In this document: positions 36,019-38,165 of the stretch, piece after piece | How positions within the stretch are numbered: position 1 is the first letter of the stretch | Layout of the letters: each line of letters starts with the position of its first letter | DNA from: Escherichia phage SpoonbillGilly | Sequence record: PP925828.1 | Length of the DNA: 64,000 nt | Reading direction: 5' to 3' (one strand) | The notes under the pieces: generated by a model | What the model was told of the DNA's origin: nothing | What the model saw: only the letters and a program-made list of their open reading frames with translations | The model's database searches: none | Program-made: the position numbers and the translations under genes

Positions 36019-36219
36019 ATGGCAATGACAATAACACTTCCAAAGATTCAAGCAAAACTTAATTTGCTCTCCATAGCAAGAATCAATTACCAGGATAGTA
36101 TCGGCACTCCAAACCAGAAAGCGTACAAAGATGCGTGGTTGAAAGAAGCTGCTGATTTAGCTGGTATGGCTGCTCAGTATAACAAAGAACTCAAAATGGA
36201 AATCGCAGACGATGAATAA
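36019..36219 (+). CDS. hypothetical protein (66 aa)
   Basis: Start set at ATG 36019 downstream of promoter -10 and GAGAGGA RBS. Confidence 0.45.
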   Translation: MAMTITLPKIQAKLNLLSIARINYQDSIGTPNQKAYKDAWLKEAADLAGMAAQYNKELKMEIADDE

Positions 36220-37183
36220 TGTAAAAGACTTTATCAAACGTTGTCAAGAAGCGTACTACCAGGGAATGAGTCTTATTTCCGATGAAGAATATGATCGTCT
36301 GATTAAAAGATTCCCGCTAGAGGAAGAAATCGGGCCGAAAGGTGATATTCCACATCTATATCGTATGTATTCTTTGCAGAAAGTCTATTACGGTCGTGGT
36401 GATAAAGCTCCGTTCAATCCACTTGGTCAGGTTGAAACTGATAAGTTAGATGGTTGTGCGATTTCCCTATTATATATTAATGGTGAGTTTGTTCAAGCAT
36501 TAACTCGTGGTAACGGTATTCTAGGGAATGATGTAACGCATAATGTTAAAATGCTAAACATCCCCAAAACTATTTCCCAAAAAGTACCAACTCAAATCAC
36601 TGGTGAAGTTCTCATTACTAAAGAAGTAGAGAACAAACGTAACTACGCTTCGGGTGCTATTAACCTGAAAGACAGCGATGATTTCATGCAACGTATTGGT
36701 GAAGGTGGTTTAATCTTCGTTGCATATGGTATCCAGTGTTCAGCGGAAACAGTCGGTATTACAGAAGCCTATTTAAAAGATATGCTTTGGCTAGAGAATG
36801 AGAACTTCTTGACAGTTGTTAATGTTCGTGCCTTCTTTAAGTGGATTCCGACGGATGGTAAAGTTGTTCGTATTAACGACAATAATAAATTCTTCCGCGA
36901 AGGTTGGACTAATAAATTTCCTCGTGGTGCATTTGCTATTAAAGAGGATGAAGAAGGCGAAATTACCACACTTGTTAAAGTTGAATGGCAAGTAGGGGCT
37001 TCTGGTAAAGTAACTCCAGTTGGTTATTTCGAGCCGGTGATTATTGATGATGCCACAATCGTTAAAGCAACTCTTAATAACGTTGATTATATTAACGCTC
37101 TCGATTTAGAGATCGGTTGCCAGATTCGAGTGATTCGTGCTGGTGGTGTAATCCCTTGTATAGTAGAGCGAGTATACGACTAA
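36212..37183 (+). CDS. lig: NAD-dependent DNA ligase, N-terminal (adenylation/OB) part
   Basis: KLDG adenylation-lysine motif (ETDKLDGCAISL) and TRGNG (TRGDG-like). Confidence 0.8.
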   Translation: MNNVKDFIKRCQEAYYQGMSLISDEEYDRLIKRFPLEEEIGPKGDIPHLYRMYSLQKVYYGRGDKAPFNPLGQVETDKLDGCAISLLYINGEFVQALTRGNGILGNDVTHNVKMLNIPKTISQKVPTQITGEVLITKEVENKRNYASGAINLKDSDDFMQRIGEGGLIFVAYGIQCSAETVGITEAYLKDMLWLENENFLTVVNVRAFFKWIPTDGKVVRINDNNKFFREGWTNKFPRGAFAIKEDEEGEITTLVKVEWQVGASGKVTPVGYFEPVIIDDATIVKATLNNVDYINALDLEIGCQIRVIRAGGVIPCIVERVYD

Positions 37184-37325
37184 TTCGTAACCCTTTGCTA
37201 CCCGTTTACCATGTCGGAATTATAAAGTGGTTATTGACATTTTCGCCGCTTAGGTATATACTATTATCATTCAGTTGAGGGATAGAAAGTTATGGCGAGG
37301 GTAAGCAAAGTTAGTTAAAATTGTA

Positions 37326-37354
37326 GTTGCTAAATGCTTAAATACTTGCTATAA
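37326..37354 (+). promoter_or_regulatory. sigma70-type promoter between the two ligase ORFs (TTGCTA-17-TATAAT, TG extended -10)
   Basis: ttgcta 37326-37331, tgc-tataat 37346-37354. Confidence 0.55.
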
Positions 37355-37385
37355 TATTTATATAAATTGATAAGGAAGAAATTTG

Positions 37386-38165
37386 ATGAAAATCGAAATT
37401 CCAACACAATGTCCCTCTTGTGGTTCTAAGCTAGATCTTGTCAACGGGCAATTATTCTGTAGGAATAAGTCCAACTGTCCAGCGCAATCAAGTAAGTTAA
37501 TCGAGAACTTCTGCACAAAAATGAAGTTAAAGGGCTTTGGCCCGAAAACTATTGAGAAGCTGGAGCTGACTAAGATCTCAGAACTGTTTTACCTGACCGA
37601 AGAAGATTTGGTCGGAGCTGTGGGTAGCAAGGTTGCCGCTAAGTTGATTAGCGAGTTAAATACTAAGGTTCGCGGAGACATTGACTTTGGTTCAGTTCTC
37701 GGTTCTTTAGGAATACCTCTTATTGGAGAGGTTGCAGCAAAGAAACTGTCCCAAAATTGCACTAGCTTTCACGATGTGAAAGCTGACGGCAAGGCTGGAG
37801 AAAATTACAAAACTTGGCTAAATTCCCCACAAGGCAAGGATGTTATTGAATTACCGTGGAAATTCTCAACTGGTATTCGAGGTACTAAAGCTGATATCAT
37901 CATTACAGATGATTTAGTTGCCCAACCAAATGGAATCACGGTCTGTATTACCGGATCTTTGCAAGATTTTGCAAATCGAACGGATGCAACAAACTATTTA
38001 GAAAGTCTAGGATATACGGTTAAGAAGTCCGTTACCAAAGACGTCAAATACCTAATCTGTGAGGATGAATCAAAACGTTCTTCCTCATCTTATAAGAAAG
38101 CCGAAACGAATGGGATAGAAATCCTGTCGATTAAAGAACTATTGGAGAAAAATAATAATGTCTAA
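37386..38165 (+). CDS. lig: NAD-dependent DNA ligase, C-terminal (Zn-finger/HhH/BRCT) part
   Basis: Zn-finger CPSCGSKL...CRNKSNCPAQ at N-terminus, HhH-like G-rich segments, BRCT-like C-terminus; start at ATG 37386 with AAGGAAG RBS. Confidence 0.75.
   Translation: MKIEIPTQCPSCGSKLDLVNGQLFCRNKSNCPAQSSKLIENFCTKMKLKGFGPKTIEKLELTKISELFYLTEEDLVGAVGSKVAAKLISELNTKVRGDIDFGSVLGSLGIPLIGEVAAKKLSQNCTSFHDVKADGKAGENYKTWLNSPQGKDVIELPWKFSTGIRGTKADIIITDDLVAQPNGITVCITGSLQDFANRTDATNYLESLGYTVKKSVTKDVKYLICEDESKRSSSSYKKAETNGIEILSIKELLEKNNNV

Follow-up and report, generated by a model that had tools for sequence, protein, structure and literature searches.

[quoted passage not shown]

The stretch from 36212 to 38165 of Escherichia phage SpoonbillGilly (PP925828.1; "the window" is the whole 64,000 nucleotides analyzed, one strand, 5' to 3') almost certainly carries ligA and ligB, the two separately promoted genes over which T5-like phages naturally distribute a two-subunit NAD+-dependent DNA ligase. 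The split itself is nothing new: in T5 it has been on record since 2005, and for the related phage PR1 the structure of the two-subunit enzyme has now been solved. The present analysis may add value of a comparative kind only, i.e., fused relatives in the same gene order, family-wide promoter conservation, and a slot of changing cargo in which an endonuclease gene is sometimes found. The locus is also a clean natural case of a multidomain enzyme tolerating a cut at a linker, which bears on engineered split ligases and on how LigA closes round DNA, a point for which the T5 literature and the structure of the PR1 heterodimer already serve. For annotation, the two ORFs are ligase subunits A and B, neither a pseudogene nor two separate ligases, and the gap between them should carry the promoter pair P-K28b/P-K28a.

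Identity of the locus

The source phage is T5-like (Demerecviridae), with ~98.8% identity to Salmonella phages Stitch and Seabear, and all features given below lie on the + strand. Judged by aligned sequence and layout, the locus is orthologous to T5 ligA/ligB (T5.116/T5.117; AAU05253/AAU05254): the order promoter, ligA, P-K28b, P-K28a, ligB, D5, and DnaB-type helicase is the same, as are the ORF lengths (972 and 780 nt) and the 202-nt gap, and the run from ligA through the tandem promoters, ligB, and D5 to the helicase occupies one strand in the window. An earlier note, made from the sequence alone, had correctly seen a two-gene ligase here but had not recognized the T5 ligA/ligB locus. The two-gene layout was present in all cultured T5-like phages examined and recurs in about 900-1000 phage records, so an assembly artefact is unlikely.

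T5 differs in lacking the small accessory ORF (36019-36219; about 66-72 aa; phrog_8267) that our phage has between the upstream promoter and ligA. This ORF, which ends 8 nt inside ligA, is absent from many other relatives as well, and many matches start only at query position 213 (window 36212), i.e., at the ligA start. The ATG at 36019 is likely its start codon, given that in the ORF as read from a TTG the match to the PHROG sets in only at residue 7.

Two subunits and the break between them

The earlier note had placed the end of an adenylation/OB portion at 37183, and the ligA ORF (36212-37183; 972 nt, 323 aa) indeed carries both domains, with Pfam matches to DNA_ligase_aden (PF01653, E 2e-23) and DNA_ligase_OB (PF03120, E 9e-22, residues 252-321); the OB fold takes up residues 252-323. 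The motifs KLDG (residues 78-81, nt 36443-36454) and TRGNG (residues 98-102, nt 36503-36517) align with the same motifs, KxDG and TRG(D/N)G, of canonical LigA. The NAD+-specificity domain Ia, recognized by its YY...SDxEYD signature, is present in a form shorter than that of E. coli LigA, with SDEEYD at residues 23-28, and the stretch AYYQGMSLISDEEYDRL (residues 14-30) can be aligned to the Ia region in both Thermus LigA and long LigA representatives. This domain and the overall homology point to NAD+ as the cofactor of the phage ligase and to nick sealing as its activity.

For ligB (37386-38165; 780 nt, 259 aa), the ORF finder chose a TTG at 37383; all homologues begin M-K-I at the ATG at 37386, which is where the Zn-finger/HhH/BRCT portion had been said to start, and all three regions were found downstream of it. 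The Cys4 zinc finger (C9, C12, C25, and C31, invariant across 27 aligned homologues) is followed by an HhH region at about residues 32-155, to which HhH profile matches were weak, a disordered linker (164-180), and a BRCT domain (182-254, E 1e-8), so that the zinc finger, HhH, and BRCT of a LigA-type enzyme all sit on the second polypeptide. Residues 3-122 find their counterpart in E. coli LigA 402-529, and an AlphaFold model of subunit B matched the E. coli LigA structure 2OWO at E 2e-7. Subunit B begins with the pattern M-K-I-x-I-P-x-x-C-P-x-C, and the break point is the same in 27 of the 27 aligned B subunits. The lengths of homologues with as little as 50% identity stay within 247-263 aa, and these share the M-K-I start. 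Both ligase halves are under clear purifying selection.

Mapped against bacterial LigA, the break falls in the linker between the OB fold and the zinc finger, A residue 320 corresponding to E. coli LigA 390 and B residue 3 to 402; compared with fused homologues, the split loses only the 8-12-residue OB-zinc finger linker. E. coli LigA (PDB 2OWO) has the same domain order (Ia, NTase, OB, Zn, HhH, BRCT) and shares KxDG, TRG(D/N)G, the four zinc-finger cysteines, and BRCT with the phage pair, but it is one 671-aa chain, whereas the phage enzyme is distributed over two chains (323 + 259 = 582 aa) and is compact, with a shorter Ia, deletions in the NTase, a shortened HhH, and no OB-Zn linker. Rather than all domains lying on one polypeptide, there are two ORFs with 202 nt and stops in all frames between them, and the split, heterodimeric form is a known exception to single-chain LigA.

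A heterodimer on nicked DNA

The supposition in the earlier note that the halves work as a two-subunit enzyme is supported by the PR1 ortholog, whose deposited structure shows a heterodimer bound to nicked DNA. PDB 9hu3 (released 2026-01-14; 9i5i also dates from January 2026) is titled [quoted passage not shown], and the chains of 9hu3 and 9i5i, a 339-aa "DNA ligase (NAD(+))" and a 248-aa "DNA ligase subunit B", match the window proteins at E 2e-106 (A) and 7e-80 (B). Chain B of 9hu3 is 100% identical to ligB of Providencia phage vB_PreS_PR1, a phage of another genus (Priunavirus) whose orthologous two-gene locus has the same layout with a gap of 192 nt. Both PR1 subunits are 55% identical to ours over their full length, although its subunit A is 10 aa longer and its subunit B 11 aa shorter, and PR1 chain B matches the AlphaFold model of our subunit B at E 1e-25. 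From this 55% identity, we infer that A and B of SpoonbillGilly form the same heterodimer on nicked DNA. Our literature search, which covered few subscription journals, returned no paper on the biochemistry of the split ligase in T5 or PR1.

Within such a heterodimer, subunit A would perform all catalytic chemistry, in that it would bind NAD+, adenylylate its own Lys78 in KLDG, transfer the AMP, and seal the nick, and subunit B would be the DNA-binding half of the clamp, which in LigA-type enzymes is needed for ligation though not for self-adenylylation. A LigN protein truncated after the OB domain adenylylates itself and does not ligate (PMC1684257). The two subunits are expected to associate non-covalently and to encircle nicked DNA together as single-chain LigA does.

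Promoters and transcription units

The gap between the genes (37184-37385; 202 nt, 32% GC) has 4-5 stops in each frame, ligB lying in the +1 frame relative to ligA, and would be a working regulatory block with two tandem early promoters. Of these, the earlier note had described TTGCTA-17-TATAAT, which we find at 37327-37355 with a TGn extended -10, followed, as also described, by a ribosome-binding site, AAGGAAG (37373-37379), 6 nt before the ATG and with its GGA core conserved in alignment; it had missed a second and better match, TTGACA-17-TATACT (37234-37262), which agrees with the consensus at 11 of 12 positions. The downstream promoter lies within the equivalent of T5 "promoter P-K 28a" and the upstream one within that of "promoter P-K 28b". 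In a scan of 35500-39000, promoter-like matches were not enriched as a class (7 found vs 7.2 expected), and the two gap promoters were the best two matches, on the + strand and in the only non-coding stretch.

Their positions are kept across the family. In 10 of 10 aligned cultured Demerecviridae genomes, which span T5, Klebsiella, Proteus, and Vibrio phages, P-K28b stands at -151 to -155 and P-K28a at -57 to -60 from the ligB ATG, and the uncultured split loci L014 and L017 have a promoter at -54 and -56, respectively. The last 165 nt of the gap, which cover both annotated 75-nt promoter features, are 100% identical to T5, as against 88% for ligA and 94% for ligB at the DNA level, and in six of eight comparisons across genera the conservation of the promoter block equaled or exceeded that of the coding DNA on either side. 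The T5 annotation and this conservation suggest that both are active as strong sigma-70 early promoters, with transcription predicted to start near 37269 (P-K28b) and 37362 (P-K28a). A degenerate pattern for a downstream motif common to the two gap promoters gave no match, and searching the literature for K28a/K28b brought up only unrelated matches. A peptide behind P-K28b, MARVSKVS (ATG near 37291), was rejected as a gene: it is not conserved, and Sugarland has a TTG and another frame there.

ligA, for its part, would be transcribed from its own early promoter, TTGCTT-17-TATAAT (35961-35989), upstream of the small accessory ORF (orf72) and ligA, and T5 annotates a promoter at the equivalent place (L004 10285-10359). 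This promoter and the one at 37327 appear to be of the same cassette family, both matching TTGCT-N18-TATAATATTTATATAAATTGA exactly, a pattern with 5 copies in the window vs 0 expected. Downstream, the gene of a D5-type DNA-binding protein (38158-38925) starts 8 nt inside the end of ligB, and for this reason is probably co-transcribed with it from P-K28b/a; T5 annotates D5 at the equivalent place, and a D5 neighbor is common to all relatives, fused-ligase contigs included. The tandem promoters would thereby start a ligB-D5 unit that probably ends at the intrinsic terminator at 38943-38971 (a 13-bp stem, then a T run). A terminator is annotated right after ligA in the PR1 record, whereas a simple scan detected no terminator-like site between ligA and ligB in our phage, and ligB is therefore probably transcribed from three promoters, by read-through from ligA in addition to the gap pair.

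In an alternative reading, the reason for the split would be a further function of subunit B, e.g., as a BRCT/HhH DNA-binding or recruiting factor made in excess from the strong P-K28 promoters, and the heterodimer would be one role among others. In its favor, two strong promoters act on ligB in addition, its translational coupling is to D5 and not to ligA, and a promoter lies directly upstream of it in every split locus examined, distant uncultured ones included. We consider this improbable, however. None of the genomes in our sample has ligB without ligA, and in the fused relatives described below a D5-like gene comes after the ligase although the promoter block is missing, so that D5 and not ligB may be what the promoters serve.

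Fused relatives and a variable cargo slot

Comparison with the ligase loci of related phages showed the split layout to be shared and also brought up relatives with a fused ligase or with cargo at the junction. In uncultured T5-like phages with the same gene order, the ligase is a single fused protein of 555-586 aa (e.g., P0156 with 557 aa, P0160 with 566 aa, and P0174 with 562 aa, among others). These fused ligases have the same compact domain set, are colinear with A and B (38-43% and 30-36% identical, respectively), and lie in the same order as in the split phages (PC4-like, ligase, D5-like, DnaB, primase, PolA); they differ in being a single ORF with an 8-12-aa linker where our locus has 202 nt flanked by a stop and a start codon, and in having the D5-like gene directly after the ligase, with no promoter block. 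Fused ligases in T5-like phages sharing this gene order make it probable that the split is the derived state. Most fused compact forms took basal positions relative to the split ones in a neighbor-joining tree of 122 A-type sequences, but three of them fell among split sequences; as the tree has very short internal branches and no bootstrap values, we make no claim that the split happened only once.

Relatives carry different cargo in the slot directly behind ligA, e.g., a gene for a GIY-YIG-type (T5orf172) endonuclease, and most of the genes found between ligA and ligB have no known domain in Pfam or PHROGs. Endonuclease-like cargo was seen only in vB_Kpn24-P3 and L014, and the Vibrio cargo is DprA-like (phrog_768). 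One ancestral insert was considered as the source of this cargo and rejected, as an all-against-all BLASTP of the cargo ORFs found shared ancestry only among the DprA-like genes.

Tentatively, and with more doubt than confidence, we suggest that the ligA/ligB junction may have long served as a landing site throughout the family: a mobile cassette, possibly a GIY-YIG/T5orf172-type endonuclease gene with its own promoter, would have cut a fused compact ligase, of the kind that uncultured T5-like phages still have, at the OB/zinc-finger linker, its promoter would have been retained for ligB and D5, and the slot after ligA would since have exchanged unrelated cargo (endonucleases, DprA-like genes, and small ORFs). 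Searches aimed at the ligase and the PR1 structure, in a literature with few subscription journals, returned no paper on such a history.

T4-like phages reportedly have "genes in pieces" made by free-standing homing endonucleases, as in Aeh1 nrdA, split by mobE, and the T4 topoisomerase genes 39/60 with mobA. There, too, an essential replication enzyme is said to be encoded by two adjacent ORFs cut at a domain boundary and to reassemble non-covalently, as we propose for the ligase. A further parallel is that an endonuclease gene lies at the ligA/ligB junction in some relatives, but the junction in our window has no endonuclease gene. The ligase split also differs in being fixed across the whole phage family with conserved promoters at its junction, and an endonuclease is only a possible cause of it.

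The earlier note had also entertained the gap as the scar of a lost insertion, and insertion as an origin story is not baseless, given that some relatives have an endonuclease gene at this site and that fused relatives exist. The extra genes of relatives sit at exactly this junction, always directly after the ligA stop: Klebsiella phage vB_Kpn24-P3 has a 232-aa T5orf172/GIY-YIG-type endonuclease there, the ligA-ligB span of its sibling vB_Kpn24-P2 is about 680 bp shorter, uncultured L014 has a shorter phrog_681 endonuclease-like ORF at the same place, and the fused 555-586 aa relatives in the same gene order make a derived split probable. That the gap in our phage is now a decaying, functionless remnant of a homing endonuclease gene or intron is nevertheless very unlikely. 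About 165 of its 202 nt are a promoter block 100% identical to T5, with promoter positions kept family-wide, and a neutral scar would not behave so; only about 50 nt (37184-37233) are left free, with no ORF remnant in them. The gap has no ORF of at least 30 aa and the junction in the window no endonuclease ORF, Rfam searched over 36900-37700 at E <= 1 gave no match (intron families included), the RNA fold of the gap has an unremarkable z-score of -0.74, with no special structure, and the cargo genes of relatives are mutually unrelated, so that no single ancestral insert is identifiable.

One chain or two

There is no frameshift, intron, or intein at the ligA/ligB junction. A sequencing frameshift was named in the earlier note as the finding that would overturn its reading. 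For a sequencing or assembly frameshift, or a ligase pseudogene, in what is really a single ORF, there is only the general possibility and the different frame (+1) of ligB relative to ligA, and its chance is negligible given a 202-nt spacer with 4-5 stops in every frame, an identical architecture in roughly 900-1000 independently sequenced phage genomes, purifying selection on both halves, a separate ribosome-binding site and start codon for each, and a solved structure of a heterodimer of two separate chains.

Split inteins and translational bypass have precedents in phage replication genes, and the halves might on such grounds be thought to be joined into one polypeptide after all, whether through a split intein, trans-splicing of the RNA, or a ribosomal bypass like that in T4 gene 60. 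This has next to no chance of being correct either. Every residue of A and B is accounted for by the fused homologues, from which the pair differs only by the missing 8-12-aa linker, so there is no room for intein halves; accordingly, no extra halves were seen at the A C-terminus or the B N-terminus, and there is no Pfam intein domain. The spacer, moreover, reaches 0.9-1.4 kb with whole genes in Vibrio phages, ligB is preceded by promoters and a ribosome-binding site, and PDB 9hu3 lists two chains under a title that calls the enzyme heterodimeric.

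A T5-type DNA ligase encoded by two genes

[quoted passage not shown] The earlier note's observation that an NAD-dependent ligase is divided between two genes was confirmed by reading frames and domain matches: ligA (36212-37183, + strand) is a 323-aa ORF whose product matched both the adenylation domain of NAD-dependent ligases (E 2e-23) and their OB fold (E 9e-22), with KLDG at residues 78-81 and TRGNG at residues 98-102, while the ligB product matched BRCT (E 1e-8) and, weakly, HhH, and has four cysteines (9, 12, 25, and 31) that are invariant across 27 homologues. Although ligB was listed as a 260-aa ORF at 37383-38165 (+ strand), we place its true start at the ATG at 37386, because homologues all begin M-K-I there. 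Alignment to E. coli LigA located the break at the junction of OB fold and zinc finger (A residue 320 corresponds to LigA 390, and B residue 3 to 402), where fused homologues have an 8-12-residue linker flanked by the end of A (…IVERVYD) and the start of B (MKIEIPTQCPSC…). Together, A and B comprise 582 aa versus 671 aa in E. coli LigA, because domain Ia and the HhH region are shorter and the NTase domain has deletions.

In the T5 RefSeq genome the order is promoter, ligA (T5.116), P-K28b, P-K28a, ligB (T5.117), then D5 and D6, and the ORF and gap lengths equal those in the window; identity is 100% over the gap's final 165 nt, 88% for ligA, and 94% for ligB. Subsequent publications give the two genes as encoding subunits A and B (PMC3632103; PMC4319617). 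Many Salmonella T5-like phages (e.g., Stitch, Seabear, and LVR16A) are 98-99% identical over the 2.4-kb region. Separately, database entries under the name "Campylobacter phage A148" (MG065642) share 98-99% identity with this Salmonella/E. coli T5-like phage, and subunit B has exact or near-exact matches among proteins assigned to Brucella melitensis or Salmonella enterica; these matches probably reflect host mislabelling or phage contamination of bacterial assemblies.

The main interpretation offered earlier, that the halves work as a two-subunit enzyme, is supported by a solved ortholog. A PDB sequence search linked subunit A to the 339-aa "DNA ligase (NAD(+))" chain (E 2e-106) and subunit B to the 248-aa "DNA ligase subunit B" chain (E 7e-80) of the heterodimers 9hu3 (released 2026-01-14) and 9i5i, and the AlphaFold model of subunit B (mean pLDDT 83.8, disordered linker at 164-180) retrieved 9hu3 chain B (E 1e-25). 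That chain shows 100% identity to the ligB protein of Providencia phage vB_PreS_PR1 (Demerecviridae), which has the same locus layout with a 192-nt gap and whose A and B are each 55% identical to those of the window over their full lengths; by this orthology, the SpoonbillGilly proteins would likewise act as two subunits. Such a division of function is consistent with single-chain work, in which a LigN fragment ending after the OB fold self-adenylylated but did not ligate (PMC1684257).

The intergenic gap is a conserved promoter block

In the gap (37184-37385; 202 nt, 32% GC), the TTGCTA-17-TATAAT promoter and the ribosome-binding site that the earlier note had described were confirmed; the promoter (37327-37355, + strand) is preceded by TG, and AAGGAAG lies at 37373-37379 (+ strand). 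A first, stronger-looking promoter had been overlooked, TTGACA-17-TATACT (37234-37262, + strand), which matches the consensus at 11 of 12 positions. T5 feature coordinates mapped to the window (P-K28b, 37214-37288; P-K28a, 37307-37381) each enclose one of these scanned hexamer pairs. An alignment of ten cultured Demerecviridae genomes (the window, T5, bastian, Klebsiella Sugarland, Eos, Proteus M4H10_20, and Vibrio pVp-1, Direpillow8, JSF12, and D117) showed both promoters in every one, TTGAC(A/G)-17-TATA(C/A)T at -151 to -155 and TTGC-…-TGnTATAAT at -57 to -60 from ligB; ligase proteins in some of these are just 45-55% identical to the window's. Two distant uncultured split loci have a promoter at -54 and -56. 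The 165-nt block was more conserved than flanking coding DNA in six of eight comparisons (e.g., 77% versus 70% for Sugarland); in the remaining two, with the most distant Vibrio phages, it was slightly less conserved. The gap is thus a conserved regulatory block and not a scar.

The P-K28a cassette (TTGCT-N18-TATAATATTTATATAAATTGA) recurs in the window as five near-identical, dispersed copies versus 0 expected by chance, each including ~15 nt conserved at the beginning of the transcript: 235-278, 3382-3425, and 13567-13610 (all - strand), 35961-36004 (+) upstream of a small ORF and ligA, and 37327-37370 (+), which is P-K28a itself. In the 1980s the Bujard laboratory reportedly characterised strong early promoters of T5, the P28 promoters among them. 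A scan found no terminator-like site between ligA and ligB and a strong one at 38943-38971, after D5, whose start overlaps the ligB stop; ligB and D5 would be transcribed as one unit, both from P-K28b/a and by read-through of transcripts begun at the ligA promoter.

Fused relatives and the origin of the split

Three comparative points may be modestly new, and concern the phage family rather than the window itself: fused relatives in T5-type gene order, retention of the two promoters across the family, and a slot whose cargo varies and includes endonuclease genes. Subunit B matched 1008 phage records (tblastn); matches of at least 45% identity were all T5-like phages with two ligase genes, and those below ~30% were single-chain ligases of jumbo phages. 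All 120 of the subunit B homologues listed from a large protein collection stand alone (247-263 aa, except two visibly truncated at 190 and 214 aa). Among 1.8 billion cluster representatives, subunit A retrieved many 300-340 aa proteins as well as compact fused ligases of 555-586 aa (e.g., P0156, P0160, and P0174, from uncultured T5-like phages), which align colinearly with A (38-43% identity) followed by B (30-36%). Their contigs follow the T5-type order of PC4-like, ligase, D5-like, DnaB-type helicase, primase, and PolA genes, in which sister split forms also occur, and have no promoter block between ligase and D5-like gene. In a rough neighbor-joining tree built without support values, most fused forms were basal to the split ones and three were nested, and the split state probably derives from a fused compact ancestor through one or several events. 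One uncultured fused-ligase contig also codes for NAMPT-like and PRPP-synthetase-like proteins (L011, 59-2429), which, as proteins of NAD+ salvage, fit an NAD+-dependent ligase.

The earlier note alternatively read the gap as the scar of a lost insertion such as a homing endonuclease or intron. For the gap itself this fails, given the conserved promoter block and the lack of any endonuclease-type remnant at the window's ligA-ligB junction, where the first promoter begins just ~50 nt after the ligA stop. As an account of how the split arose, however, involvement of a homing endonuclease is a fair hypothesis because some relatives carry endonuclease genes at the junction. Extra genes in relatives lie directly after the ligA stop and ahead of the promoter block, and mostly their start codon overlaps or abuts that stop. 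Klebsiella phage vB_Kpn24-P3 has a 232-aa treble-clef plus T5orf172 endonuclease of the GIY-YIG superfamily (L012, 2159-2857; phrog_681, E 3e-45), and since the ligA-ligB span of its sibling vB_Kpn24-P2 is ~680 bp shorter, the gene looks like a mobile endonuclease that is polymorphic, carried by one phage and missing from the other; the uncultured locus L014 has a 123-aa phrog_681-like ORF. Other cargo comprises ORFs of 64 aa (Salmonella bastian), 55 aa (Proteus M4H10_20), and 204 aa (Serratia Kamaji), and two or three genes in Vibrio pVp-1, Direpillow8, D117, and JSF12. A DprA-like gene recurs in pVp-1, Direpillow8, and JSF12; otherwise the cargo ORFs are mutually unrelated.

Other explanations were excluded. 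For an intron, Rfam gave no match in the region and the RNA fold of the gap was unremarkable (z = -0.74); split-intein halves have no room, since A and B align to fused homologues with no residues unaccounted for; bypass was rejected; and a sequencing frameshift, which once corrected would fuse the two ORFs, is ruled out by 4-5 stop codons in every frame of the gap, ligB lying in frame +1 relative to ligA.

Neighboring genes

A PC4-like ssDNA-binding gene (35625-35933, +) upstream and a D5-type HTH DNA-binding gene (38158-38925, +) downstream border the ligase. Most of the T5-like loci examined share this arrangement, whether from cultured or uncultured phages; no PC4-like gene was detected on the compared contigs L015-L017. 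Between upstream promoter and ligA, a small ORF (36019-36219, +; phrog_8267, function unassigned in PHROGs) shares 8 nt with the start of ligA; it occurs in some close relatives and is absent from T5 and many others, and in relatives without it similarity starts exactly at the ligA ATG. In JSF12, a 73-aa cargo ORF (L009, 2571-2792) falls in phrog_13916, labelled "DNA ligase" in PHROGs, a label that looks carried over from neighbors because the ORF has no ligase domain. A DprA-like gene (phrog_768, weak PF02481) was not seen beside the window's ligase and accompanies the enzyme's genes in non-T5 genera (compared loci L001, 3710-4237; L002, 3413-3973; L009, 2831-3403; L007, 526-1158; L013, 642-1208), where it sits between the two ligase genes of Vibrio phages (pVp-1, Direpillow8, and JSF12) but immediately precedes ligA in phages of Proteus and Serratia.
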